Virus record (IMG/VR): IMGVR_UViG_2693429518_000021 | DNA: 42,445 bases | Direction: 5' to 3' (one strand) | Origin: a virus | Taxonomy: Duplodnaviria; Heunggongvirae; Uroviricota; Caudoviricetes | Shown here: positions 6,290 to 41,773 of the stretch, piece by piece | Position numbering within the stretch: position 1 is the stretch's first letter | Layout: every line of letters starts with the position of its first letter | Notes under the pieces: model-generated | Database searches by the model: none | What the model was told of the DNA's origin: nothing | The model's input: only the letters and a program-made list of their open reading frames with translations | Made by a program: the position numbers and the translations under genes

Positions 6290-8353
6290 TTAATCCTTAC
6301 GGTAGTGGTACGCCTCAAAACCGCCAGCGTTCAGTGGGATATCTGGCGCCCATTCGGGGTTAGTGGAGAGAAGCGCGGAAAGCGCTTTATCGTTGAAATC
6401 TTCTGTGTCAGGTGATTCGGTGATCACCTCGTCGTGTACCGTCAGCACAATGCTGTAACCGGCATCTTCGATAAGCGGCATGTTTCCGGCCAGAACGTCG
6501 CGGGCGGCCGCCTGGGTGACGTTCTCCACCAGCTTTCCGCCGTAGGTTTTGAGTCGTTGCCATTTACGCGAATAAGAGTTAACACCCATGTAGGTGATAT
6601 TCCCTTGTTCGATAACCGGAGACGGGTAGCATACAGCGCGTCCGGATGGTAGCTGTATGCGCAGCCACGCGCCATCGCGGCGGATTTTAAGATAACCGCA
6701 ATACAATGTTTTTTGCGGTGTGGCGATTGCTGTGCGGACGGTGCACTCCAGTTCGTACCAGAAATCACAGGTCGCGGGATGCGCCCGGCGCCAGAGACGT
6801 TTAAGTGAGTCGCAGGCGATAAATACCCGTTCAGAAAGCCCGTAGGTCGATTTACGTTTAACCGATTCGTCGTACCAGCTTTTCGCCTCGCGGATAACAT
6901 CGCGGGGAATGTTTGGCAGTGCGGCGTTCGCCAGCCCGTCGAGATCGAGACCGTAAACCAGAGCAAAAGTGATGAAAGCCGATACACCTCCTCCATAACC
7001 CAGACCGAGTTCCATGACTTTACCGATCTGACGCATGTGTTTATCAACATCATCTGGTGCAATATCGAAAGCTTTTGCATACGCCAGTTTATATAAGTCC
7101 GGACCCGTTCCGGCGTCGTACTCTCTGAATGCATTCAGTTTCCATTCTTCTCCCGCCAGCCATGCCAGCATACGGCCTTCAATGTTCGACAAGTCACTTA
7201 CCACCAGCTTTTTGCCTGTTGGCGCGATAATGCAGCCACGTAACGCTGAACTGGTTAGTTCCATGATATTGTCAAACAGCAGGTCTGCACATCCGGCTTT
7301 CAGTGCTTCGATGCCTTCGTCTATTTGTTCCTGTTTTAGTGAAGGGCGGGGAAGGTTCTGGGGCTGGAATAGCCGTCCGGCCCAACGACCGGTACGTGAC
7401 GCCCCGCAGAACTGTAGCGTACCGCGTAAGCGCCCGTCGTGGCTTACGCCTTTCATCAGTGCCTTGTATTTACTGGTGCTGGTAGTACTGGCCTGCAGGC
7501 GGATAGCCAGCAGTTCTTTCACGGCAGATGGTAAATCGGGGTCGGCAATACGACGTTCCAGAGTACTGCGTTGCATGTCTGGTAGCTCCACACCGTAGGA
7601 TTCAACAATGTGCTTAATCAACGCGTCTCGTTGTGTGGCTGCCTGCACTTCGCCATCAGTCATTTCCTGTGTACGCTTTGCCAGGCGCTTTTGTTCCTGG
7701 TCTACCGCGTCGATCGCAGCGCGTGCGAGTTCCACGTCCATGCAGACGCCCCGGTCATTGATCTGCTGATCACGATGCCAGAGCGCCAGTTCTGTCCCCT
7801 GATAATTCCACTTCGGCAGACGTTTATAGACTTCGCGCATTGCCTCGATATCCAGTCCGGCGTAAGCAACAAAGCGCCGCCATTCTTCCGGGTGGGTTTT
7901 GCTGGTGGCCCGGCGCAGTTTGCTGTTTTTCGGGCGTGGCTTACAGAACAGCTGGATCAGCGCTTTACCTTCTTTGTCCTTCGCTTTGTCTTGCGGGACG
8001 CCTAGTACTTCGCAGAGTTCCCCCAGAGCCCCCGGGAGACCGTGCGCCAGCGCCTGCACCATCGTGTCGCGCCAACGTTCGACTGGCGGTGCCAGTCGCG
8101 GCATTGCATAACGCAGGACGGTGCGGTCGAAGTGAGAGTTATGAAAATAAAGCAGGGTTTCAGGGGCTGCGATTGCTTCGTATAAGCCGTGTGGAATACC
8201 ACCACCGGCAGTGATATCCCATACGTTTACTGGCCCGTCGTTGATAGCCCATGCGAACAGCATCACTTCAACGCCTTCGGCATACGCATGGGTACCGTTC
8301 GTAATAGGGATTTCGCAATAGGTTTCCAGGTCGCCCCATAGTATATTGGACAT
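6290..8353 (-). CDS. DNA polymerase, family A (with 3'-5' exonuclease domain)
   Basis: 687 aa; exonuclease DxE (WGDLETY), polymerase motif A ([19 protein letters not shown]-like), motif B ([16 protein letters not shown]), motif C (VHDE). Confidence 0.85.
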
Positions 8354-8399
8354 GTGTTTACCTTGGTTTTTATTCTATTAACTGATTAAAAGATTAATT

Positions 8400-9029
8400 A
8401 TGCATATGATCCAATACTTGATTGACCATACAGAGCATCTGGAGAAAATAGCTGGATATATTTTTTCATGTTTGATTGTTATGGGAGTCTGGATAAGAAA
8501 GATCATTTTTAATTATAAGTATAAAGAGCCTAAATATGTCAAGAAGTTAATTTTATATTTAGTTAAGTATGAACGTTATCTGGATAAGGAGGATAAGAGT
8601 GCCATAGAAAAAAGAATAAATGATAAAATTATTCGTGATGCGCTGAAATTGCAATCTTCTTATAACCGAAGTGATGTTATTTACATTTGCAATAGATTAG
8701 AAAAAAGACAGTATATAAATCAGGTGATTAAGCTTCAGAATTATATAGAGAAAGATAACGGAGTGTTTTTCATCAATGTTAATTTTTCAGGTTTTTTATT
8801 TATTATTAGTCGTCTGTTTTCCTTTCTGTGTTTTGTGCTGTTTATCCTTTTTTCTATTATCTGCATTATTTCCATAGGGCAAAATGAAGGCCTTTTAAAT
8901 TATCTTGTGTATATGGTTATGACAATAGTTTTAGAGACTGTTGGTTTTTGGATGTATGATACTTTCCCGTCTAAGAAGAAGATCTGTGAACTAAATAAAG
9001 AATTGAGGAAGATTAAGATTCCTGAGTGA
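8400..9029 (+). CDS. Hypothetical membrane protein (AT-rich accessory gene)
   Basis: 209-aa ORF, visibly AT-rich with Lys/Ile/Asn/Tyr-rich codon usage unlike neighbours; predicted TM segments (IAGYIFSCLIVMGVWI; FLFIISRLFSFLCFVLFILFSIICIISI; LVYMVMTIVLETVGFWMY); antisense to the polymerase/SSB operon. Confidence 0.6.
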   Translation: MHMIQYLIDHTEHLEKIAGYIFSCLIVMGVWIRKIIFNYKYKEPKYVKKLILYLVKYERYLDKEDKSAIEKRINDKIIRDALKLQSSYNRSDVIYICNRLEKRQYINQVIKLQNYIEKDNGVFFINVNFSGFLFIISRLFSFLCFVLFILFSIICIISIGQNEGLLNYLVYMVMTIVLETVGFWMYDTFPSKKKICELNKELRKIKIPE

Positions 9030-9047
9030 TTATACGCCTAATCAGCA

Positions 9048-9066
9048 GCCCGGTATTTAACCGGGC
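9048..9066. terminator. Hairpin GCCCGGT-ATTTA-ACCGGGC between convergent genes
   Basis: Perfect 7-bp stem read from sequence; no clear U-tract on either strand, so terminator function is tentative. Confidence 0.3.
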
Positions 9067-9081
9067 GTCTATGAAGTAGGG

Positions 9082-9630
9082 TTAAATCAGTGCTTCAGCA
9101 TCAGCACCTTCGCTGATATCGTCGAAATCGTCAGCGCTTGCCACTCCGCCGCCAGCGAATGCATCGCCGTCTCGCAGGAACTGGACTCCGCCTAGTGAGG
9201 CATTAATGCGTTTACCGAAATTATTGTCCTGTGCCCAGATATCGATAACGGCGTTTACATAGCACCCTGCATAGGGACGTCCATCAGCCTGAATAAGTGG
9301 CGAACGATCGCGATCAAGAACAGCTGGGCGCGCTTTGTTAGCAGCATTCAGGAAGAAATTGCCGGGGAAGCCTTCATACTCTGCTTTTTCATCACCATCA
9401 TGCAGGCACAGATTGAGTTTTTTCTCCAGTTGGTTATAAATGGGCTCCCACTTCTCTCCCCATTTTTCCTTCGCTACCTGCTTCATAGCTTTACGGATTT
9501 CTTCCAGTTGTGGGTGTTTGGGTGACATTAAAAATACTGCGGAGAAACGTGGATCGCCTTCGCCGTTTACAGTTTTAGCTTCAAACAGAGACGGGAAGGC
9601 CAGACGAACATTGTTCAGCTTCAGTTTCAT
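9082..9630 (-). CDS. DUF2815-family phage protein, ssDNA-binding-like
   Basis: 182 aa; N-terminal MKLKLNNVRLAFPSLFE and acidic C-terminal tail (DDFDDISEGADAEALI) typical of SSB-like proteins. Confidence 0.5.
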   Translation of the reverse strand: MKLKLNNVRLAFPSLFEAKTVNGEGDPRFSAVFLMSPKHPQLEEIRKAMKQVAKEKWGEKWEPIYNQLEKKLNLCLHDGDEKAEYEGFPGNFFLNAANKARPAVLDRDRSPLIQADGRPYAGCYVNAVIDIWAQDNNFGKRINASLGGVQFLRDGDAFAGGGVASADDFDDISEGADAEALI

Positions 9631-9645
9631 GGGTATTTCCTTAAA

Positions 9646-10947
9646 TCAGATGAGGTCTGCGGTTAGCGTATCGTCGGATACGTCGTCGAAATCATTTACA
9701 GGGTTGATATTGAGTGCGGGGCGTGGGTCTGACTCGGGAACGATGGTGGGTTTACCATCAGCTCGTGTTATCAGTGCCTCGACTTTTGACCAACGGCGCG
9801 GACTGGCCTTTTTGATAAGTTTTTCGGCTTTTGTGGGGCTAATAAGTTTAAAGTCGAATACTTCTTCAGTTTTGTACCTGAACTGGTCCTTCAGAAGTGC
9901 GCGAGCTGCCTCTTCATCACTCCAGGCCCGGTTACCTTGTTTTCCTGTTACCAGTTTAAACCCCGGTACCGGATGTCCGGCATTGAGTTCATTGTGAACC
10001 CGGTCTCGTACTGCCTTTAGCCAGGATTCAATAAAGTCGGCCTGGCTATAGATCTCCGCAAGCTGCTCAATGGTTAACAGAGGTACACGTGCGCTGGCAT
10101 TGGAGATTATTTCGCTGACAGGCTTTGTCAGATCTTCAAAATCGCTGGCCGCTGTTTGTAAATGCTGCATTTTCTGGGCAGTGCAAATAGCTTTTGCTTT
10201 ACAGAAGCGGCACTGTTTTTCTCCAGGTATGAAGTTTTCCAGCGGTAGTGTCTCAATGCCTTCGCATTCAGCAATATTGAGAACAAGGATCGCACTGGTT
10301 GCGGCCTCCAGTGCCCGTTCACCGAAAGACTGAAGTTCCTGTACGGTTAACGACCATTCTGAAACGTGGTTGAGCCTTGGCTGGTGAATAAATAATCTTA
10401 CAGTCTCAAAGTCATACAGCATGCTGAATTGTTCGAGCGCACCCAGAGCATACAGTTGTAGTTGCTCATTTTGTTCTGCATCAATGCGGACGCCTTTGCC
10501 ATATTTCAGGTCGTGGATTTGTAATTCGCTACCAGCAATGATTATGCCGTCGGCAGTTCCGAAAGATTCTTCCACACCCGTTATATGTGAGAAATCAACA
10601 CGTTGTTCAACCAATAGTTCATTATTCTGTGCAAGAGTCCAGACCGTATCAACATACCGGCCAACGGCTTCGACCATTTCATCATCCACCTGTGGGCCAG
10701 ATGTATCATTAGGATTTTCGCGAAGGGGGTATGAGCTGAGAAACATAGAAACATTGCATCCGGCGTAGTGTTCCGGGTAGCTTTGCCTGTTTCGTAGAAC
10801 TTTTTCAGCAAGCGCGTGCGCTGCAGTGCCCTCGATTGCAAAAGTTGTTTCTTTATCCGGTTGTGTGGCCTCCAGCGCCAGACTTCCTGGGCAGCGCATC
10901 CATCGATGCGCTGATGATGGAGAAAGTTGTGCATGAACGTCTGGCAT
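9646..10947 (-). CDS. DUF2800-family PD-(D/E)xK nuclease, Cas4/AddB-like with Cys cluster
   Basis: 433 aa; N-terminal [15 protein letters not shown] matches the DUF2800 signature as I recall it; C-terminal [10 protein letters not shown] cysteines consistent with an Fe-S cluster. Confidence 0.65.
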
Positions 10948-10949
10948 GA

Positions 10950-11852
10950 TTAACCCTCCAGTGCTTTTTCAGCCAGGGTGATTACTTCAGCGAGATTTTC
11001 ATCCGTTACTTCACCAAGTTTCCTGGCTCCCTGTTTTTCCAGAATTGCAATAGCTTCTGCCCGGTAACCCCCTTTTGCTAACTGGAGGATCAACCCTTCA
11101 GCTTGTTTGCGTAGTGCCGCGAAATCAATTGTATGGTCATCTTTGGCGTCATGATTCTGGCTGGAATTTGCTGCGTCTCTGCGTGCAAATTCTTCTTGCA
11201 GCTGAAGGTACTCAACACGGTTGATCTCGATATGGCCTTTTTTCAGCATCTCGTTCAACTTGCGTAAGGTGTGGAGTTCACTGGCTGCTGTGCCGGATAC
11301 ATTTTTGACGTAAAACGGCCCCGTGCGTTCTCCATCTTTGTTACTGGCCTTTTTCGGCTTAACTTCATCACGCCCATCCGCAGGTGCATCAAGTAGCTGC
11401 TCGGCAAAAACACGTCGCTCGCCGATGGTTGGCAGGTCGTCCCAGAACTTAAGGATGTTACGGGACAGGTCCAGGAGAGCAGGTTTAAGCAGCGCCCTGG
11501 CTCGTTTGACGCCCTGCAATGCGCTGTCGAGAGCATCAATCTGAACTACTCGTTTATCGCCTTCAGCATCACGGTAGGCAACAGCACGTTGCAGCATGTC
11601 TTCTGTGATAGGGGTGGCTACCGGGTAGAAACCAGCCAGTGCGATAACGTCGCTGAACTCCAGATCATCCAGTGTCATTGCCGCTGACATATTTTCAGTT
11701 TCAGTTGCTGTATCCCGACATTCCTGCACTCGTGAAATCGTGTCAGGATGCATAACAATGCCTGATGCCATTGTGCGGATAAGACGTTCAAGCAGCGCAT
11801 TATGTTGTGCCAGAAGTTGATTATTAAGTTCGAGACTGGTTTCTAAACTCAT
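10950..11852 (-). CDS. Hypothetical protein, first large gene of the leftward operon
   Basis: 300-aa ORF with GAGGA Shine-Dalgarno 7 nt upstream of its ATG; no recognisable motifs. Confidence 0.5.
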
Positions 11853-13165: not shown

Positions 13166-13840
13166 TTAGTACATACGTAGCGCGGATTTGGCGATCCCCG
13201 CCACGTAATGGATTTTTTCAATGTTTTCGCGTGGTACTCTGACTGGTGGATGATCTTCATTTACAGACATTAGATGGAACAGGCCATCGCGTTCGAACAA
13301 GAAGGTTTTAACCATGACCTCACCTTCCCGGGTAACCACAAGTACTTCATCACCAGGAGTGTAGTCGTGGTTGGGTTCGACGATTACGAACTCCCCCTCT
13401 TTGATTCTAGGCATCATTGAATCACCAACACATTTCAGGGCGTATGCATCTTCATCCTTTGTCGGCCAGTATATGAAACCATCACTGCTACCTACTGAAT
13501 ATTGGGTGTCGCTCCAAAGTCCTCCAACGCCTAGCTGAGTGTTTCCCAAAACAGGTACTTTATTAAACCTAAGAGAAATATACGTTTTTATACCTGTCGC
13601 GTCCTCTTTCTCCATTTCTTGAAGGCTCCTTTCTGCCAAGTCTATTGGTGACACGTGGAAGTAGTCGGCGATCTGCTTTAACGTTGCGTATTTCGGATCT
13701 TTCACCTCTCCTGATACCAGCCTGTGTAGCGTTGGTTGGTTCAGCTGTAACCGACGTGCCAGCTCAGTTATCGAGCTTATCTTGGCTTTGTCCATCAGGT
13801 ACTTGATGTTTTGAGAAAGGATATCGGTAGTATCAATCAT
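13166..13840 (-). CDS. cI: CI-like prophage repressor (HTH + S24 LexA-like autopeptidase domain)
   Basis: 224 aa; N-terminal HTH (ITELARRLQLNQPTLHRLVSG); C-terminal S24 signature with catalytic Ser in GDSMMP and Lys in VMVKTF. Confidence 0.85.
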   Translation of the reverse strand: MIDTTDILSQNIKYLMDKAKISSITELARRLQLNQPTLHRLVSGEVKDPKYATLKQIADYFHVSPIDLAERSLQEMEKEDATGIKTYISLRFNKVPVLGNTQLGVGGLWSDTQYSVGSSDGFIYWPTKDEDAYALKCVGDSMMPRIKEGEFVIVEPNHDYTPGDEVLVVTREGEVMVKTFLFERDGLFHLMSVNEDHPPVRVPRENIEKIHYVAGIAKSALRMY

Positions 13841-13981
13841 TTGGATTCATCCATGTTGTATACAGGGACGGTGATTATGCGTTATCGGATATTTTAATCT
13901 AGGATGACATAGAATTGCTGTATTGCTGAGTAATCCGTTTTCGTATAAATTTGCGCTATAGACGAAAGTGGAGACTTAAAT
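13841..13981. promoter_or_regulatory. Divergent immunity-region promoter/operator interval between cI and cro
   Basis: 141-bp AT-rich intergenic region between divergently transcribed repressor and Cro-like genes; specific operators could not be resolved by eye. Confidence 0.5.
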
Positions 13982-14182
13982 ATGTCCGGACTAACACCAC
14001 AAGAGATGGTCAAAAGCTTGATTGATTCAGGGTATACCCAAAACCAAATTGCCGAAATTGCAGGCGTGAAGCAGTCTTCTATTAGTCGGCTTCTTACCGG
14101 GGTTCATTCTGACCCTCGCTTTTCTACAGTACGTGCGATAGAAAAACTTTTTCAGGAAGTGACAGCTAGACAAAAGGTGTAA
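13982..14182 (+). CDS. cro: Cro-like HTH regulator
   Basis: 66 aa; HTH motif YTQNQIAEIAGVKQSSISRL; positioned divergently from cI. Confidence 0.65.
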   Translation: MSGLTPQEMVKSLIDSGYTQNQIAEIAGVKQSSISRLLTGVHSDPRFSTVRAIEKLFQEVTARQKV

Positions 14183-14185
14183 CCC

Positions 14186-16372
14186 ATGTCCGATAGCAAA
14201 CCATGGGGAGCTACGCCTGATGAGTGGTTTCATTTCGACCTGGTATTGGGGCGGACTGCTCATCTTCTCCCAGTTGTATGTAACCCCAGTGCGACCATAT
14301 CCCCTGATAGTAAATTGAAAGCGTTGGGTAAGACGCCGAGTCGCTATAACCGGGACCGCCAGGTCACAGGTATTGCTCAATGGACCGGGCATGTTGTTAC
14401 TGAGCATGATTTTGCCCGCTGGTCGAATGAACCGGATTATGGCATCTGCGTGCGTACAGGCCATGGCTGGCTGGCGCTGGACTGCGATAGCGAAGATGAA
14501 GACATTCAGGCAGATATTCGCAAAACACTTGTGCAACTTCTGGGTGAGTCGCCGCCGCGACGCTGGCGAGCAAACAGTAATAAGTGTCTGTATCTGCTGG
14601 CCGTTGATGGTGATTTCCGTAAGCGTATCCATCGCCTGGCGGGGGATATGGGCATTATCGAGTTGCTGGCGAACGGGCAGCAGTTCGTTGCCTGTGGTAC
14701 GCACAGCAGCGGCGCGCGTATTGAATGGGACGGTGGTTTGCCGGATGAACCTCCGGCTATTACAGGTGAGCAGCTTGAAACGCTGTGGCAGCGCCTGGCT
14801 GAACAACTCCCTGTGTCGGTAACCACCGAAGCGGGCAACACGAAGATGCGCGACCGTTCAGCATTCACGCCCGGCGCGACGGATGATACAGCTGAATATC
14901 TTGATGCCAATGGCTGGACGCTGCTGGATGGCGCAAACGGTGAACGATATATCCGCTGTCCGTTTGAAGACGGCCACAGTAGCGGAGGCGATCCAACAAG
15001 CACAGTTTATTTTCCTGCGGGAACCGCAGGCTTTGAGCAGGGGCATTTTAAATGCCTGCATGCCAGTTGCGCGCATCGTGATGACGGAGATTTCCTGAAT
15101 GCCATCGGGATCCGCAACGACGATTTCGAAGATCTGACCAGCATCGAAGTGGCGGAACCTTTACCGCTGCCTGCTTTCGAGCGTGATAAATGGGGGCGTA
15201 TCGAGGCAACCATCAGCAATGCAGCCAAAGCAGTAGTACGCTCTGATTTTGTGGACATCGATATTCGCTTTGACCAGTTCCGCGACGAAATCATGTTTGC
15301 CCCGGCAGGATCCGGACAATGGCGGGCATTCACCGATGCGGATTATGCGCGCCTGCGCATCACGATGGAAAAGCGGGGATTTAAACCTGTTGGCCGTGAA
15401 CTTATTCGCGATGTGGTGTTACTTGCAGCCGATGAACAACCATTCGATTCAGCGATCACCTGGCTGAACGGACTGGAGTGGGATGGCGTGCCGCGCATCG
15501 AATGTTTCTACCATACGCACTTCGGTACCGCCGACACGCCTTATACCCGTGCGGTGTCTATGTACATGTGGACCGCGTTGGCGGGGCGAGTACTGGAGCC
15601 AGGCATCAAAGCGGATATGGTGCCGATCCTCGTTGGTCCGCAGGGCTGCGGTAAGTCTTCCGGAGTGGAGGCACTGAGCCCTGATCCTGCGTTTTTTACT
15701 GAAATCTCTTTTGCCGAAAAAGACGATGATCTCGCTCGAAAAATGCGTGGTCGGCTGGTGGCAGAGATTGGTGAACTGCGCGGGCTTAATACCAAAGAGC
15801 TGGAGTCAATCAAAGCGTTTGTGACGCGTACTCACGAAAACTGGATCCCGAAATACCGGGAGTTCGCCACCCAGTTTCCTCGTCGCCTGGTGTTCGTTGG
15901 TACCACTAATGAGGACGAATTCCTTGCGGACAAGACTGGTAACCGTCGCTGGCTCCCCGTGGAAGTGTCGAAAGTCGACGTGAAAGCGATAAAAAGAGAT
16001 CTCCTTTTACTTTGGGCTGAGGCTCGTGAGGTGTTTCAGCGTCTGGGGGGTATCCAGTTCCGTGAGGCTGAACAACTGGCAGCGAGTGTCCATGAACAGT
16101 ACACCATCAAGGATGCTTGGCTTGAAACGGTAGAGAAATGGCTCGACACGCCCGACCTGATGACTAATGAACTTCCGCGAAATTGCGAATTTTTACGCGC
16201 AAGTGATGTTTTGCGTGATGCGATTGGGCTAAATCCTGACCGCATCGGAAAACGCGAAGAAATGCGAATTAGTAATGTTTTGCAAAATTGCGGGTATAAG
16301 CGTGCCCAAAGGCGAATTGGGGGGAAAAAATGCAAGGTTTGGGAACCGCTGGAACCACGCGGAACCACCTAG
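14186..16372 (+). CDS. Phage primase / replication initiator (prim-pol N-terminal region plus P-loop NTPase)
   Basis: 728 aa; Walker A GPQGCGKSS in the C-terminal half; acidic cluster ALDCDSEDED in the N-terminal half; first gene after cro; iteron repeats begin within its 3' end. Confidence 0.75.
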   Translation: MSDSKPWGATPDEWFHFDLVLGRTAHLLPVVCNPSATISPDSKLKALGKTPSRYNRDRQVTGIAQWTGHVVTEHDFARWSNEPDYGICVRTGHGWLALDCDSEDEDIQADIRKTLVQLLGESPPRRWRANSNKCLYLLAVDGDFRKRIHRLAGDMGIIELLANGQQFVACGTHSSGARIEWDGGLPDEPPAITGEQLETLWQRLAEQLPVSVTTEAGNTKMRDRSAFTPGATDDTAEYLDANGWTLLDGANGERYIRCPFEDGHSSGGDPTSTVYFPAGTAGFEQGHFKCLHASCAHRDDGDFLNAIGIRNDDFEDLTSIEVAEPLPLPAFERDKWGRIEATISNAAKAVVRSDFVDIDIRFDQFRDEIMFAPAGSGQWRAFTDADYARLRITMEKRGFKPVGRELIRDVVLLAADEQPFDSAITWLNGLEWDGVPRIECFYHTHFGTADTPYTRAVSMYMWTALAGRVLEPGIKADMVPILVGPQGCGKSSGVEALSPDPAFFTEISFAEKDDDLARKMRGRLVAEIGELRGLNTKELESIKAFVTRTHENWIPKYREFATQFPRRLVFVGTTNEDEFLADKTGNRRWLPVEVSKVDVKAIKRDLLLLWAEAREVFQRLGGIQFREAEQLAASVHEQYTIKDAWLETVEKWLDTPDLMTNELPRNCEFLRASDVLRDAIGLNPDRIGKREEMRISNVLQNCGYKRAQRRIGGKKCKVWEPLEPRGTT

Positions 16373-16528
16373 AAGAGAAGGTGGTTCCACCTTGCAGACC
16401 TTGTGGCAAGCGGGGCGGAACTACTGGAACCACTGGAACCGCCTTTCTACTAGAAACCCCATATATATATATAAGTCGATTGAGGGAAAGGTTAGGAAAA
16501 GGTGGTTCCAGGTGGGGGCAGGTGGTTC
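16342..16528. repeat. Iteron cluster / putative origin of replication: GGAACC(AC) repeats in both orientations around an (AT)n tract
   Basis: Direct GGAACC at 16342, 16351, 16361, 16426, 16435 (variant GGAACT at 16417); inverted GGTTCC at 16383, 16503, 16523; ATATATATATATA at 16460..16473. Confidence 0.55.
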
Positions 16529-16660
16529 CACTCCGAATTAGCAACTTTTTGCATGTTGATACATGCAATATGCGGATCGGAACTGCGTTATCCACACCCA
16601 CGGATAAACAGACGTAGTTCTCAGAAAAATTTTTCGTAGCAAAACGTAGAGGTCAGAGCT

Positions 16661-17083
16661 ATGCGTAATATTCAACAGGTTTTAGAGCGCTGGGGTGGCT
16701 GGGCAGCGAGTGAAGGTGGTAGCGTCTACTTTCCTCCTGTTGCAGCCGGGTTTAAGAATCTGCTACCCGCGACGCAGTCTGGAAGGCTGAAATGCAGTGA
16801 CAATGACGGTCTTATCATCAACTCCGCTATGAGCTGCCTGAAGAAAAAAGATCCGTATCTGTGCACGCTCCTTGAGTGGCATTACGTCCAGGCCATGCCC
16901 GTGCGGGCGATGGGTGAGAAGCTCGGCGTATCTCACACCCACGTTCTGAAGAGGCTTCAGGCGGCAGAGGGATTTATTGACGGTTGCTTAGCCATGCTGG
17001 ATGTGGTGCTCGAAATGGATCAGTCGGTTCAGTCAAAGCCTCAGGCTATCAGGACTTTGCGTAGGAGCTGCTCGGCGGCATAA
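16661..17083 (+). CDS. Q: Late-gene antiterminator Q-like protein
   Basis: 140 aa; N-terminus MRNIQQVLERWGGWAA and the CSDNDGLII / GEKLGVSHTHVLKRLQAAEGFIDGCLAMLDVVLEMD regions resemble the short Q antiterminator family of lambdoid phages (from memory); sits upstream of the lysis cassette. Confidence 0.65.
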   Translation: MRNIQQVLERWGGWAASEGGSVYFPPVAAGFKNLLPATQSGRLKCSDNDGLIINSAMSCLKKKDPYLCTLLEWHYVQAMPVRAMGEKLGVSHTHVLKRLQAAEGFIDGCLAMLDVVLEMDQSVQSKPQAIRTLRRSCSAA

Positions 17084-17114
17084 TATCCAGCAATCAATCA
17101 CGTAAGGGAACCAG

Positions 17115-17456
17115 ATGGCTCTGATCAGCGTTCGCAACAGATTTGAAAGCTTCATGGAACAGAGGTACCCAGACCTGTCGTTGCAGGTCAAAGGTAATAT
17201 TGGCGCATCAATGAAGGCTCAACTTGGCATCAGGATTGAACGAGAATTGTACAGTGAAGATGTTACTTACTGTGATTCAGCAGTTCAGTTGATGTGGACA
17301 CTCTTTCAGGCAGGTGTTCTGGCCGAACGAAGAGCTACCAGCGTTACGCTTCCTGCGCTGAAGGCAAAGCCGGATAGCTTCTACGATGCGGGTTATAATG
17401 AAGGTATTCAGGACTGTCGTAAACATCTGACGGCATCAGGCATCAAGGTAAGATAA
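17115..17456 (+). CDS. Hypothetical protein
   Basis: 113-aa ORF between Q and the putative late promoter; no recognisable motifs. Confidence 0.45.
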   Translation: MALISVRNRFESFMEQRYPDLSLQVKGNIGASMKAQLGIRIERELYSEDVTYCDSAVQLMWTLFQAGVLAERRATSVTLPALKAKPDSFYDAGYNEGIQDCRKHLTASGIKVR

Positions 17457-17702
17457 AAAATAGTTGTGGAATTCCAAAAAGCCGATTAGCCTGATATCTG
17501 TTGAAAACAGTTCATCACGAAGAGGCTTCCGCAAGGGGGCCTTTTTTATTGCCCCATTCTGGGGAAAAGTTAATAAAACAGGGCTTTCGCTGCGAAAAAA
17601 CGCTATGCAGTTTTTGCCCTTTTTTATGCACCTTTTATTCACTCGAATTTCGTCATTCTGGACCACTTAAGTTGATTAAATAGGCCTTTCATCGCAAATC
17701 TA

Positions 17703-21490: not shown

Positions 21491-22956
21491 TGGCACGAAA
21501 CAAACAAGCCCTGCGGCGAACTGCGCAGGCCACAGCTGATGGTTATGAGAATTTTATTGCCCGCGTAGGGATGCAGACACCTAACCAGCACTCAGCATCC
21601 ACCTACCGGGCTAATTTCACCAGTCGTAACCGCATGCTGGTGGAATGGTCCTATCGTTCATCCTGGATCATCGGCGAAGCAGTCGATGCTATCCCGGATG
21701 ATATGACCCGCAAAGGCATTCGCATCACGTCGGAAATTGATGCAAAAGATCGTGGCATTCTCGAATCACAACTGGATGAGTTGCAAATCTGGGATGCGCT
21801 GAATGACGTGCTGAAATGGTCGCGCCTCTACGGCGGCGCGGTGGGTTTCATCATGATTGAGGGGCAGGCACCAATGACCCCGCTGCGACCCGAAACCATC
21901 GGTAAGGGCAAGTTTAAGGGGATTCTCCCGCTCGACCGCTGGATGATCGACCCGGTACTGACCCGCCGCATTAAAGATATGGGGCCGGACCTGGGTAAAC
22001 CTGAGTTTTACGATGTGGTGACCACAGCAACGGGAATTCCTGCCTGGCGCATTCATCACAGTCGCCTGATTCGCTTTGATGGCGTCACGCTGCCATTTCA
22101 GCAGAAGATGACCGAGAACGAATGGGGAATGTCGGTTGTAGAGCGTATCTGGGATCGTCTTACCGCGTTCGACAGCGCTACTGTCGGCGCGGCGCAGCTG
22201 GTCTACAAGGCGCATCTGCGCACCTACAGCGTGGAGAAGCTACGCGAGCTTATCGCACTTGGTGGTCCTGCGTATGAAGCGTTGCTGAAGAATATCGACC
22301 TGATTCGACAGTTCCAGAGCAATGAAGGTATGACACTCATGGACTCGCGGGATAAGTTTGAAACGCATCAGTACAGCTTCAGTGGTCTGGATGACATCCT
22401 TTCGCAGTTTGCAGAACAGATTAGTGGCGCTGTTGGTATCCCACTGGTGCGGTTGTTCGGACAGTCCCCGAAAGGATTTTCTACCGGCGATGCAGACCTT
22501 GCCAACTATTACGACCGGGTAAGCTCGTTACAGGAGAGGCGTTTACGTCTTCCGGTGCGGCGGATACTGGACATCATGCATCGTTCGGAGCTTGGCAAGC
22601 CGCTGCCGGACGATTTCACGTTTGAGTTTAACCCGCTCTGGCAAATGTCTGATGTCGATCGCTCAACGGTGGCGTTAAACACTACCAACGCAATCAGTAC
22701 GGCGCTGGGTGATGGTCTGATGACACTGAAAGCCGCTATGACTGATTTGCGCGAAAATTCTGACGTAACCGGCATCGGGGCATCCATTACCGACGAGGAC
22801 ATCGAGAATGCCGAAGATGAAGCGCCGCCCGGCATCGGCGAATCTGATGACGAACCGCAGGAACCGTCAGGCGGAAATCCGCTATCGAACCAGCCTACGC
22901 AGGATAGCGCGGGCGGTCGGAGACATCGTAAATGGTCGCTACGATGGTTCAAATGA
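21490..22956 (+). CDS. Portal protein
   Basis: 488-aa ORF following the large terminase with a 1-nt overlap (TGATG); acidic C-terminal region. Confidence 0.7.
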   Translation: MARNKQALRRTAQATADGYENFIARVGMQTPNQHSASTYRANFTSRNRMLVEWSYRSSWIIGEAVDAIPDDMTRKGIRITSEIDAKDRGILESQLDELQIWDALNDVLKWSRLYGGAVGFIMIEGQAPMTPLRPETIGKGKFKGILPLDRWMIDPVLTRRIKDMGPDLGKPEFYDVVTTATGIPAWRIHHSRLIRFDGVTLPFQQKMTENEWGMSVVERIWDRLTAFDSATVGAAQLVYKAHLRTYSVEKLRELIALGGPAYEALLKNIDLIRQFQSNEGMTLMDSRDKFETHQYSFSGLDDILSQFAEQISGAVGIPLVRLFGQSPKGFSTGDADLANYYDRVSSLQERRLRLPVRRILDIMHRSELGKPLPDDFTFEFNPLWQMSDVDRSTVALNTTNAISTALGDGLMTLKAAMTDLRENSDVTGIGASITDEDIENAEDEAPPGIGESDDEPQEPSGGNPLSNQPTQDSAGGRRHRKWSLRWFK

Positions 22957-23581
22957 CAGTATCACGGAAATTATTGAGGCGCTGGAACGCTACAGTGAAA
23001 TCATCACCCCCTGGGCGACAAAGGTCGCGGAAAACTTTACTGCGGACCTAACCCGGCAGAACGAGAAAGTTTGGCGGCAACACAGCAAGAACATCAGTCG
23101 CGAGCTCCGCAATCTTGTGGAAAGCGCTCCTGTGGGCCAGGTGATGCAATCCATCATCGCCGAACAGGTCAAGTACATCAAATCGCTCCCCCTCGAGGCG
23201 GCTGACAGGGTGTACGACATCCAGAATCGGGCGACAGAAGCTGTTGTGACCGGTGGGAGAGCAGAATATTTTGCTAAAGAAATAGCCGCATCGGGTGATA
23301 TAGCAAAGTCCAGAGCTGACCTGATTGCCCGTACTGAACTTGGACGTGCAACCGGCGCGCTGGATCAGGCGCGTGCGCTGTCAATTGGTTCGAATGGTTA
23401 TATCTGGCGTACAGCCGAAGATGGTGACGTCAGGCATTCTCATCGGGAAATGGAAGGTAAATTTGTCGAATGGGGCAAACCTCCAACGCTTGACGGCATG
23501 ACAGGTCACGCTGGCGAGCTCCCGAATTGTCGCTGTTATAAAGAAATCGTTTTTCCCACCTCCCAATCTTATCCCGCCTGA
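22808..23581 (+). CDS. Head morphogenesis protein (Mu F / SPP1 gp7-like)
   Basis: 257-aa ORF with GAGGA Shine-Dalgarno 8 nt upstream of ATG 22808; overlaps the portal 3' end by 149 nt in another frame; assignment by position after portal. Confidence 0.5.
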   Translation: MPKMKRRPASANLMTNRRNRQAEIRYRTSLRRIARAVGDIVNGRYDGSNDSITEIIEALERYSEIITPWATKVAENFTADLTRQNEKVWRQHSKNISRELRNLVESAPVGQVMQSIIAEQVKYIKSLPLEAADRVYDIQNRATEAVVTGGRAEYFAKEIAASGDIAKSRADLIARTELGRATGALDQARALSIGSNGYIWRTAEDGDVRHSHREMEGKFVEWGKPPTLDGMTGHAGELPNCRCYKEIVFPTSQSYPA

Positions 23582-23595
23582 ATCGCAGGTAACAC

Positions 23596-38834: not shown

Positions 38835-39643
38835 TGGCGAAAAATGACTTTAAAGCGTTTGCAACTGATCGAAATGCCAATGTTATGTCGCAGGAGGAAT
38901 GGGAAGCGTTGCCTGCGCTTTTATCCGGATTTACAGCAGGGAAAGCATCCAGTGCGCAGGTGAACAAAGCCATTCGACAGGCCAGCTTTATTGCTGCAGC
39001 TCTGGCCCAGTTTGTAAGTGACAAAACGCAACGGGATGTGCTTGATAATGGTGATCTGCCCGGTTTTGTTGAATTGCTGGGATCGGGGTTTGCTGTTGAA
39101 TACCTGAGCCGCAAGAATCCGTTTGGCGATATCAAATCGGATGGCACTGTGCAAACGGCTCTCGAAAACCTTGGTTTGGGAGAAGGTTCTGCATTACCTG
39201 TTGGTGTGCCTGTTCCGTGGCCTTCAGTCACACCGCCAACAGGCTGGCTGAAATGCAACGGTGCGGCTTTTTCTGCTGAAGAATACCCGGAACTGGCAAA
39301 GGCTTACCCGACCAATAAATTGCCTGATTTACGCGGTGAATTTATTCGTGGCTGGGATGACGGTCGCGGGATTGATACTGGTCGCGCTTTGCTTAATTGG
39401 CAGCCACACACAATTTTGGACCATGCACACTATATGGAATTATGGACAGGGGACGGACTCGCCGCAGGAAGTGCACGGGAAGGAGTAAACCCAGGAATAC
39501 TGGCTACATACGGTGACGGGGGAATAGTTAAAACGGACGAACCCGGTCTTAAAAGGCTATCAGAGGGAATAAAGGCCAGGGGACAGCCACTCACGGTACA
39601 ACATCCGTTACGGTTCCGGATAAATACGGCAATCCCCATGTAA
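38834..39643 (+). pseudogene. Tail fibre gene, copy 1: constant N-terminus plus truncated collar-domain variable cassette, fused out of frame to the duplicated J fragment
   Basis: First ~117 codons identical to fibre copy 2; from 39186 a different C-terminal cassette with tail-collar-like motifs ([23 protein letters not shown]); the frame crosses the junction at 39553/39554 and ends after ~30 unrelated codons. Confidence 0.5.
39159..39184 (+). other. hix/gix/cix-like DNA invertase crossover site, copy 1 (CTCTCGAAAACC-TT-GGTTTGGGAGAA)
   Basis: 26-bp imperfect palindrome with the AAACC-NN-GGTTT core typical of Hin/Gin/Cin sites (from memory); copy identity ends 1 bp after the site. Confidence 0.55.
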
Positions 39644-39975
39644 TCAAATTCTCGCGTTCCAGTGATGTGCCTGTTTATGCCCGGATTAAATTAAAAGTTT
39701 TTACGGGTTATACCTCACAGATAGGGCAGCAGATCCAGCAGGCTATTTCCGACTATATCAATAGTCTGATGATTGGTGATTCGGTCCTTTTAAGTCGCAT
39801 TTACTCACCGGCGAATCTTGGCGTGGTGAGTGGCGGGAATGCACGCTATTACGATATTCAGGAACTGACGATTGGGAAATCTCCGGGGGCTTTGTCGTCA
39901 TCAAACATTGATATCAGATACAACGAATCTGCGTCCTGTACCCCGGAAAATATCGTTATAACGGTGGAGTCATGA
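39554..39975 (+). pseudogene. 3' fragment of the J-like baseplate gene (duplicate, no start)
   Basis: Translation of 39667..39975 is identical to the last 102 residues of the J-like protein; the fragment begins at the duplication junction. Confidence 0.6.
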
Positions 39976-40652
39976 GCAAATACACCGAACTAATCACGAA
40001 CTACCACGCCACCAAACCTAAATTTCTTGCACATGTTGATCTGATGACCCGGCCGCTTATTGATGTTGCGGCGGCCACCAGAGGGCTGATTACTGCATTT
40101 GATATTGACTCTGCGGTTGGTGTGCAACTTGACATTCTGGGATTGTGGATCGGACGTAGCCGTGTTGTCAGCCAGCCTATCTCAGGTGTTTATTTCAGCT
40201 GGGATACCGACGGGCTTGGATATGATCAGGGTGTATGGCAGGGACCATACGATCCTGATTCCGGATACATGTACCTCAGCGATGAAACTTATCGTGTCAT
40301 CCTTAAAGCGAAGATTGCGATTAATAACTGGGACGGACGGAATGATTCGCTTCCGGCAATTCTTGACGCGGCAACAGCAGGATCCGGGCTGCGAATGCAG
40401 ATAGTCGATAACCAGGACATGACGATATCGGTCTGGGTCTTTCCTGATACTGATATTTCAGATGTATCGCGTGAGTTAATTGCGGCAATTAAACAGGGGT
40501 ATCTCACAGTAAAAGCCGCCGGGGTATGGGCGGGGGGCATTGAAACTCCTTCGGTGGAAACCCCATCGGAAGGCTCAAAATTTTTTGGTTTTGATATGGA
40601 TAACGAATTCATCAGTGGTTTTGATGTAGGAGCATGGGGAGTATTACTCTGA
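39972..40652 (+). CDS. Baseplate/tail protein I-like (copy 2)
   Basis: Identical to 38154..38834. Confidence 0.5.
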
Positions 40653-41350
40653 TGGCGAAAAATGACTTTAAAGCGTTTGCAACTGATCGAAATGCCAATG
40701 TTATGTCGCAGGAGGAATGGGAAGCGTTGCCTGCGCTTTTATCCGGATTTACAGCAGGGAAAGCATCCAGTGCGCAGGTGAACAAAGCCATTCGACAGGC
40801 CAGCTTTATTGCTGCAGCTCTGGCCCAGTTTGTAAGTGACAAAACGCAACGGGATGTGCTTGATAATGGTGATCTGCCCGGTTTTGTTGAATTGCTGGGA
40901 TCGGGGTTTGCTGTTGAATACCTGAGCCGCAAGAATCCGTTTGGCGATATCAAATCGGATGGCACTGTGCAAACGGCTCTCGAAAACCTTGGTTTGGGAG
41001 AAGCGGCGAAAAGGGATGTGGGTACAGGAGAAAATCAGATACCGGATATGTCAGCCTGGAAAAGAAATCCGAGTTCTAATCGCTGGAGAAAATTGCCTGA
41101 TGGAACCATCATTCAAATGGGAATATCAGCATCAGGGCCATTAGGCTCACCTGTAAATATCACCCTGCCGATATCTTTCAGCAATACCAATTATTGTGTT
41201 GTTGCATCGTACGATAATGCACGGTCAGGTGTGTCAACAATGGTTAGTTTTGCAGCATTACCTGTTTCACCATCGCAATTTTCCCTGATGTCATCTGTGA
41301 CTGAGCAAGGAGTAAATCCTTTTGCTTACTGGATTGCTTTTGGAGATTGA
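40652..41350 (+). CDS. Tail fibre protein (constant N-terminus plus variable cassette in current orientation)
   Basis: ATG 40652 overlaps the I-like stop (TGATG); sequence diverges from copy 1 after the gix-like site at 41003. Confidence 0.6.
40977..41002 (+). other. hix/gix/cix-like DNA invertase crossover site, copy 2; probable left boundary of the invertible segment
   Basis: Identical to the site at 39159..39184; lies at the constant/variable junction of the fibre gene. Confidence 0.55.
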
Positions 41351-41353
41351 TAA

Positions 41354-41773
41354 ATGGACAGATACTTCTATTCACAAAAAGAAAATGGTTTTTTTACCGA
41401 TTTAAATAAAGCACCTTCAGATGCTGTTGAGATAACCACGGATGAATGGCTGTCACTACTGGATGGTCAGGATAATGGCATGAAAATAGTCAGCAATCAG
41501 GAGGGATATCCGGTTTTGACAGAGCAACCACCTTTATCAAAAGAAAACCTTATTGCATTGGCAGAGTTGAAAAAAGGAAAACTTATTAATGAAGCCAACG
41601 AGCACATGAATAGCAGGCAATGGCCTGGTAAAGCCGCTATTGGTCGTCTGAAAGGTGACGAGCTGGAACAATATAATTTATGGCTGGATTATCTGGACGC
41701 ACTGGAACTGGTTGATATCTCCAGTGCTCCAGATATTGAATGGCCTACGCCTCCGGCAGTTCAGGCCAGATGA
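41354..41773 (+). CDS. tfa: Tail fibre assembly protein (Tfa/U-like)
   Basis: 139 aa; C-terminal motif DISSAPDIEWPTPP typical of Tfa chaperones; directly follows the fibre gene. Confidence 0.65.
   Translation: MDRYFYSQKENGFFTDLNKAPSDAVEITTDEWLSLLDGQDNGMKIVSNQEGYPVLTEQPPLSKENLIALAELKKGKLINEANEHMNSRQWPGKAAIGRLKGDELEQYNLWLDYLDALELVDISSAPDIEWPTPPAVQAR

Follow-up and report, generated by a model that had tools for sequence, protein, structure and literature searches.

A probable SaPI/PICI-type replication origin, with a fused primase-helicase as putative initiator, in a temperate Escherichia coli prophage

A cluster of short repeats lies across the 3′ end of a primase-helicase gene in the window analyzed here, a 42,445-bp stretch of DNA (IMG/VR record IMGVR_UViG_2693429518_000021) that is an Escherichia coli prophage, temperate, ∼40 kb in size and with a full structural gene set. 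Comparison with related loci and with characterized initiators makes it very likely that positions ∼16341–16553 are the vegetative replication origin of this prophage and that the 728-residue protein encoded by the gene is its initiator, helicase and primase. The origin is probably of the type known from the pathogenicity islands of Staphylococcus aureus (SaPIs) and phage-inducible chromosomal islands (PICIs), served here by a fused primase-helicase initiator. A preliminary description of this DNA had proposed an iteron and unwinding-element origin with a cognate initiator, of either theta or rolling-circle type, and the origin itself is supported by the homology to SaPI Rep, the published layout of such origins, the arrangement in relatives, the co-variation of the repeats with the tail of the protein and the lack of conservation of the short reading frames called across the region.

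A motif search of the window located exact copies of GGAACC at 16342, 16351, 16361, 16426 and 16435 on the plus strand and at 16383, 16504 and 16524 on the minus strand, together with a GGAACT variant at 16417–16422, which agrees with the eight copies, five direct and three inverted, plus one variant that had been described. Of the limits first given for the cluster (16342–16528), the start holds and the end lies at 16529. These are 8 of the 22 copies of GGAACC in the whole window, and they fall within 188 bp; 300 first-order Markov simulations of the window, scored for copies per 190-bp span, gave at most 3 copies in any such span compared with the 8 observed, and a Poisson estimate corrected for the number of spans is ∼1e-12. 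Seven of the eight exact sites agree with the 9-mer TGGAACCAC at one mismatch or none, the site at 16342 (GGGAACCGC) having two, and a tenth, degenerate unit, AGGTGGGGGC (16510–19), sits between the two right-hand inverted copies. The repeat unit is 9–10 bp long, with the consensus TGGAACCAC(C), a spacing of 9–10 bp and an exact core of 6 bp. The parts of the proposed origin are as follows.

16341–16368, plus strand: iterons 1–3, direct (GGGAACCGC, TGGAACCAC, CGGAACCAC), with spacings of 9 and 10 bp, overlapping codons 719–728 of the primase-helicase gene.
16381–16389, minus strand: iteron 4, inverted.
16416–16442, plus strand: iterons 5–7, direct, the left array of the putative core origin (the CGGAACTAC variant, TGGAACCAC, TGGAACCGC; 9-bp spacing).
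16443–16499, no strand: AT-rich central block of 57 bp, the proposed DNA-unwinding element, containing (AT)6A at 16461–16473.
16500–16530, minus strand: iterons 8–10, inverted, the right array of the putative core origin (AGGTGGTTCC, degenerate AGGTGGGGGC, AGGTGGTTCC; 10-bp spacing).
16544–16553, plus strand: right-border motif, ACTTTTTGCA in the window and (G)TAATTT(T/A)TTGCA in most relatives.

Because iterons 1–3 spell codons 719–728 (WEPLEPRGTT), the earlier placing of the first three copies inside the last codons of the primase gene is correct. Iterons 3 and 4 form a 10-bp inverted repeat, GGAACCACCT-N8-AGGTGGTTCC, across the stop codon, and a direct/inverted iteron pair at this point is also present in the other iteron classes mapped; the left array has two or three copies in the mapped relatives. 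In stability the central block falls in the lowest 1% of all 30-mers of the window. Its alternating AT tract, reported previously as 14 bp, is present as ATATATATATATA with a length of 13 nt.

The protein encoded by the gene provides a further line of evidence. Its two features of interest are the following.

14186–16372, plus strand: gene of the 728-residue putative initiator, with an N-terminal primase-polymerase of the archaeo-eukaryotic primase (AEP) type, a VapE-type helicase resembling superfamily 3 (approximately residues 393–657) and a C-terminal winged-helix-like domain (approximately residues 643–721).
16295–16348, plus strand: predicted β-hairpin wing, codons 704–721 (YKRAQRRI-GG-KKCKVWEP).

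The protein contains the Pfam VapE domain PF05272 (E 2.4e-60), its homologues carry both Prim-Pol PF09250 and VapE PF05272, and in PHROG the N terminus matches phage primase families and the remainder phage helicase families. A phmmer comparison with the PDB aligned residues 393–657 with the SaPI1 Rep chain 7PDS_A (E 7.5e-34), and no other chain matched in that sequence search at E ≤1. An AlphaFold2 model of the whole protein (predicted local distance difference test score, pLDDT, 77) also has 7PDS as its best Foldseek match (E ∼1e-21 over ∼450 columns at 22–24% identity), followed by poxvirus E5/D5, the African swine fever virus PrimPol and the prim-pol proteins of phage NrS-1 and plasmid pRN1. 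In the models the C-terminal 90 residues form three helices and then a β-hairpin (strands 704–711 and 714–721, preceded by helix 689–701), so that the domain at 643–721 reads helix-helix-helix-hairpin, with pLDDT 72–87; taken in isolation it gives weak fold matches (Foldseek, with no E below 0.03), almost exclusively to winged helices, the C-terminal domain of 7PDS among them. The families matched by the putative initiator are confined to Prim-Pol, VapE and helicase, with no HUH or Rep_trans nuclease of rolling-circle origins among them, which makes the rolling-circle option of the preliminary description unlikely and indicates theta-type initiation.

The parallel with SaPI replication extends from the protein to the DNA. 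SaPI Reps are self-loading helicases whose C-terminal winged helix binds iterons of 5–6 nt, 7PDS being the SaPI1 Rep-DNA complex. In SaPI origins 6–12 iterons follow directly downstream of rep and surround a central AT-rich region, each side having two or more that point the opposite way from those on the other; in SaPI5 primase and Rep are fused (PriRep5) (PMC9371898). The PDB entry 7OLA is listed with the same SaPI system. Similarly, E. coli PICIs (e.g. EcCICFT073, with the order pri-rep-ori) have two iteron sets enclosing an AT-rich region directly 3′ of the initiator gene, and replication of a plasmid was shown to be driven by a rep-ori fragment (PMC6092414, Fillol-Salom et al. 2018). The window has a helicase core homologous to SaPI1 Rep, a primase-helicase fusion as in PriRep5, a predicted C-terminal winged-helix-like domain, a first iteron at codon 719 of 728 in an array that runs to 16530, and three direct units (16416–16442), an AT-rich block (16443–16499) and three inverted units (16500–30) in that order. 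Unlike SaPIs, the window has a Gram-negative host and is a prophage of ∼40 kb with structural genes rather than a satellite, with its own family-A DNA polymerase and a λ-like cI/cro/Q layout; its units are 9–10 bp with a 6-bp exact core, its first iterons lie inside the coding sequence and there is an extra direct/inverted iteron pair at the stop codon. With the Gram-negative PICIs it shares both the host species and the stated origin design. A PICI is a satellite that has no virion structural genes of its own and relies on a helper phage. Given the complete virion gene set and the DNA polymerase, we do not regard the element as a PICI, even though its origin appears to be PICI-type.

Other replication systems are less close. 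The α protein of satellite phage P4, which is also mentioned in PMC6092414, unites in one polypeptide a primase, a helicase and a C-terminal domain that binds the origin by reading short iterons, and the window protein likewise combines primase, helicase and a C-terminal domain that is the predicted iteron reader; there is no detectable similarity to any solved P4 α domain, since 7PDS alone matched among PDB chains at E ≤1. P4 also requires two separated cis sites, ori and crr, whereas the window has a single iteron cluster. A second cluster of the crr kind was sought across the window and none was found, the remaining near-matches to the 9-mer being single, scattered and at a rate compatible with chance. 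The plasmid initiators RepA, π and TrfA and the λ O protein only recruit the host DnaB helicase, the iterons of theta plasmids are typically 17–22 bp and in one orientation, and λ ori overlaps its initiator gene. In common with these origins, the window has initiator-specific repeats adjoining an AT-rich putative unwinding element; it differs from them in that the initiator would itself be helicase and primase and in that its short iterons stand in opposed arrays.

We compared the region with the equivalent positions in 80 viral contigs, 24 genome loci and Yersinia phage YeP4, whose homologues are 40–100% identical to the window protein over the backbone, taken as the first 698 residues (36–100% by the best tblastn segment). 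About 100 related loci keep the layout immediately 3′ of the initiator gene, and de novo k-mer counts just downstream of the gene recovered a 6–8-mer present 4–12 times in nearly every locus. The iteron itself is variable, with at least 14 sequences among the related loci, including TGGAACCAC, TGTAACCAC, TGTTACCAC, TGTATCCAC, CTGTACCAAC, TGTCCCAAC, CTAGACCACC, AGACAACCT, GTAACAACC and AGCCACCT, as well as TGTCACCAC in Burkholderiales, TTCTACACT in Gilliamella and ACTTAACC in Symbiopectobacterium. Its arrangement is far more constant, in that a 6-mer repeated on the left side of (TA)n is found two or more times in inverted orientation on the right in 81 of 88 loci and two or more times in direct orientation in none of the 88, and control pairs drawn from different classes share such a 6-mer in 3% of cases. 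From E. coli to Gilliamella and Burkholderiales the cluster retains its place directly 3′ of this gene, whatever gene comes next, and the layout is found in the deposited Yersinia phages YeP4–6.

The center of the proposed origin is conserved across the iteron classes, as CTAnGAACCCC(AT)nAAGTCGnTTnGGGGAAAGGTTAGAAAA, and in most Enterobacterales classes a block of ∼60 bp, CTAnGAACCCC(AT)nAAGTCG..GGGGAAAGGTTAGAAAA, is nearly alike despite the different iterons that flank it, with a (TA)n length that varies in 2-bp steps between relatives. Members of the GGAACC class show almost no variation in the iteron cores or in the central block, and they diverge in the spacers and in the sequence to the right of 16531. 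The right-border motif is found 10–20 bp beyond the right-hand end of the iterons (in the window, in loci L001, L016, L023 and L091 and in others). It is present in most of 22 aligned relatives, including Yersinia phage YeP4 (74% identical) and a Burkholderiales metagenome-assembled genome (53% identical), and absent from two Gilliamella loci and L106; it may be part of the origin, for instance as a site for priming or for a host factor. The window has a single perfect DnaA box, TTATCCACA, at 16588–16596, with 58 bp between it and the last iteron on its left, and we rejected it as a defining part of the origin: perfect boxes occur in 21 of the 107 fetched loci, all close relatives that share the downstream sequence of the window, which leaves it as a subgroup-specific accessory or a chance occurrence. 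Between the proposed origin and the following gene there is also a perfect 8-bp palindrome, TTGCATGT-N4-ACATGCAA (16549–16568), that only the closest relatives keep.

A different use of the same DNA would be as a coding region, or the repeats might be functionless products of slippage, readings to which we give next to no chance. Three open reading frames of 88–110 residues are called across the region, at 16275–16541 (plus), 16330–16617 (plus) and 16269–16601 (minus), and the 2-bp changes in (TA)n together with a 10-bp insertion or deletion alter these frames between prophages whose initiators are 99–100% identical; the longest stop-to-stop frames fall from 127/105/102 to 79/72/72 codons, and to 32–44 in distant relatives. 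With frames that are not conserved and with none annotated in RefSeq, a coding role was rejected, and the reading frames are almost certainly artefacts, as had been suspected. Slippage is opposed by the conservation of iteron cores alongside variable spacers, the reverse of what neutral slippage leaves.

A second reading accepts that the array binds the primase-helicase and takes its role as mainly regulatory, as a roadblock or autoregulator that times read-through into the late genes, with the true origin elsewhere. Such a role would be in keeping with the position of the cluster, which lies within the rightward early transcript and has the initiator gene on one side and the Q antiterminator gene on the other, and with the conserved direct/inverted pair that straddles the stop codon in the mapped iteron classes. 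However, relatives keep the layout where the downstream gene is not Q, the window lacks a second iteron cluster to serve as the real origin, opposed arrays around an AT tract suit a helicase loader rather than a roadblock, and the published homologous systems are origins. We consider this reading unlikely, and note that regulatory and origin roles are not mutually exclusive. A promoter and terminator scan of 13700–17600 returned no site within 16300–16660; since no terminator was found and a T-run is missing, the inverted repeat of iterons 3 and 4 is not supported as an intrinsic terminator in the GGAACC class, and several other iteron classes do have TTTT after the repeat. An Rfam scan of 16200–16750 at E ≤1 gave no match.

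The repeats and the putative initiator are also linked by the way in which they vary together. Each iteron class is paired with its own five-residue motif, which follows a conserved GK in the second strand of the predicted wing; the pairs are listed here by wing motif.

KCKVW or KSKVW: iteron GGAACC.
MTRIF, VTRIF or MVRIF: iteron TGTACCAAC.
KMRIF: iteron TGTCCCAAC.
LMKVW: iteron TGTTACC.
VQRVW: iteron TGTAACC.
VLKVW or VCKVW: iteron TGTA(A/T)CC, in mixed arrays.
QIRVW: iteron AGACCAC.
QQRIF: iteron AGACAAC.
SQRVY: iteron GTAACAAC.

Four natural chimeras (loci L016, L017, L018 and L075) have a backbone 99% identical to that of the window protein and then ...GKMTRIF with CTGTACCAAC (TGTACC) iterons, and a Photorhabdus homologue with a backbone only 72% identical has GKKCKVW and 12 copies of GGAACC. 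Four iteron classes follow one identical upstream sequence, KRVQRRVDGK, and GKKCKVW versus GKVCKVW pairs with TGGAACC versus TGTA(A/T)CC. Judged by backbone identity, the pairing of wing and iteron is therefore independent of the rest of the protein, and on comparative rather than biochemical evidence the initiator and its iterons appear to form cognate, allele-specific pairs. Residues 715–718 are encoded upstream of the first iteron, and hence their co-variation is not a coding artefact; KCKVW (residues 715–719) is proposed, from these comparisons, as the candidate specificity determinant for the iteron core.

The same co-variation bears on the reading in which the repeats bind a different protein, for example the small terminase at a packaging (pac) site or a phage regulator at an array of operators, and adjoin the primase gene by accident. 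The small terminase gene is 2.8 kb downstream, and some pac sites likewise have short repeats arrayed around AT-rich DNA that bends easily. Against this, the iteron sequence tracks the tail of the primase-helicase on backbones that are 72–100% identical, the location 3′ of that gene holds across E. coli, Gilliamella and Burkholderiales, and there is no other variable DNA-binding gene adjacent, so that we hold a site for another protein to be more improbable than a mainly regulatory array. Both fit worse than an origin because the position 3′ of the gene is kept, the repeats track the tail and opposed arrays are the design for helicase loading.

Two further observations concern the tail and the arrays. 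In loci L015 and L064 a 10-bp deletion of one iteron unit (equivalent to 16349–16358 of the window) shifts the frame, giving a protein of 736 residues with the new tail EPLEPPKREGGSTLQAL; that these loci tolerate it suggests that the extreme tail after W719 is dispensable. In L026, L030, L044 and L092, GTAACC and GTATCC are mixed within the same arrays, with the wings GKVLKVW or GKVCKVW; these origins look like intermediates in a switch of specificity, or like the targets of a protein indifferent to that base.

Several points weigh against the origin assignment or limit it. Its support is from comparison rather than experiment. The tail codons and the iterons are <30 bp apart, so that physical linkage explains part of their co-variation, and after W719 the co-variation is trivial, the iterons encoding those residues; given this tight linkage we take the co-variation as strong comparative support and not as proof. 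The winged-helix assignment is drawn from AlphaFold2 models of moderate confidence (pLDDT ∼75) and from the weak fold matches that this domain gives in isolation. In the GGAACC class, moreover, the right array has a degenerate middle unit. Finally, this copy of the prophage may be defective, since RefSeq marks the genes for a minor head protein (22847–23582) and the pinE invertase (41106–41659) as frameshifted in the identical prophage of E. coli SJ7.

The repeats with their layout and conservation, their co-variation with the protein tail and the homology of the protein are observed; that the protein binds and melts the DNA and loads as hexamers, which way replication runs and what the wing does are inferred. 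How such an origin would work can be outlined by analogy with the SaPI and PICI Reps. After induction the protein would be expressed from the rightward early operon, which consists of a cro-like gene and then the initiator gene, and its C-terminal winged-helix domain would bind the 9–10-bp iterons (consensus TGGAACCAC), which are one helical turn apart and form two arrays of opposite orientation on either side of the AT-rich block of ∼57 bp. Two oppositely oriented hexamers could then assemble, melt the (AT)n tract and thread onto the single strands as 3′–5′ helicases, whereupon the fused primase-polymerase would prime and the phage family-A DNA polymerase would extend, so that initiation would be bidirectional and of theta type. 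The three direct iterons and the inverted one that lie over the stop codon, outside the core arrays, may act as an auxiliary binding site. Iteron specificity would come mainly from KCKVW (715–719) in the second wing strand, reading the variable 3-nt core of TG[GAA]CCAC.

The setting of the region is that of a lambdoid-like control segment, with the rightward order cro-like gene, 728-residue gene, repeat cluster, Q antiterminator, lysis genes and virion structural genes; RefSeq annotation is blank between 16373 and 16660. The regulatory genes nearby are the following.

13166–13840, minus strand: cI-like S24 repressor.
13982–14182: cro-like helix-turn-helix gene, upstream of the 728-residue gene in the rightward early operon.
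16661–17083: Q antiterminator gene.

The prophage also encodes an integrase, and it has an early operon that runs leftward. This operon, which diverges from the cro-initiator operon and the origin region, holds a replication module (6290–11852, minus strand) comprising a family-A DNA polymerase, DUF2815, DUF2800, VRR-NUC and a DEAD-box helicase, as well as a cytosine methyltransferase. The virion and lysis genes of the window include terminase, portal-like, head, neck, tail-assembly, baseplate, tail-fibre and lysis genes. Over the 2,475 bp compared, the window is identical to the prophage adjoining yfhL in E. coli SJ7, and the gene layout matches as well; the 2.5-kb stretch of gene plus repeats was found in 109 of 5,426 complete E. 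coli genomes (∼2%), among them strains of O103:H2 and O45:H2 and the enterotoxigenic strain H10407. Inside the leftward replication operon, on the opposite strand, lies a hypothetical gene (coding sequence 8400–9029, plus strand) that looks like an inserted moron or defence-type gene, and the most AT-rich and least stable stretch of the window, 8357–8825, coincides largely with it. At the other end, pinE adjoins tail-fibre and tail-fibre-assembly genes in opposite orientations (39537–41078), and the segment around them looks like an invertible host-range segment.

An origin of this kind was already known, and finding it here does not overturn current understanding; in the relatives, repeat and protein tail change together. 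The assignment places a putative origin and initiator in a region left blank by RefSeq, in a prophage carried by ∼2% of complete E. coli genomes, and it would carry the SaPI/PICI origin design beyond satellites, into full-size temperate phages of Enterobacterales and also into Gilliamella and Burkholderiales, which bears on the source of satellite replication modules. The switches of specificity appear, from the aligned tails, to map to about five residues of the wing strand, as in the allelic series in which K715V goes with a G-to-T change in the iteron core, and the co-varying classes offer initiators and origins already matched in orthogonal pairs, together with a hypothesis, open to testing, of how the wing of a winged helix reads DNA. 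We suggest tentatively, as a reading with a reasonable though less than even chance of being right, that about five residues of one β-strand (GK-xxxxx) re-programme recognition of a 3-nt iteron core (TG[NNN]CCAC), with all of the roughly ten copies, on both sides of a conserved unwinding block, changing in concert. Initiator-origin pairs might in this way speciate and avoid cross-activation among co-resident prophages and satellites, and the PICI-type origin, described as unique to satellites, may instead be a phage origin that satellites share or have borrowed.

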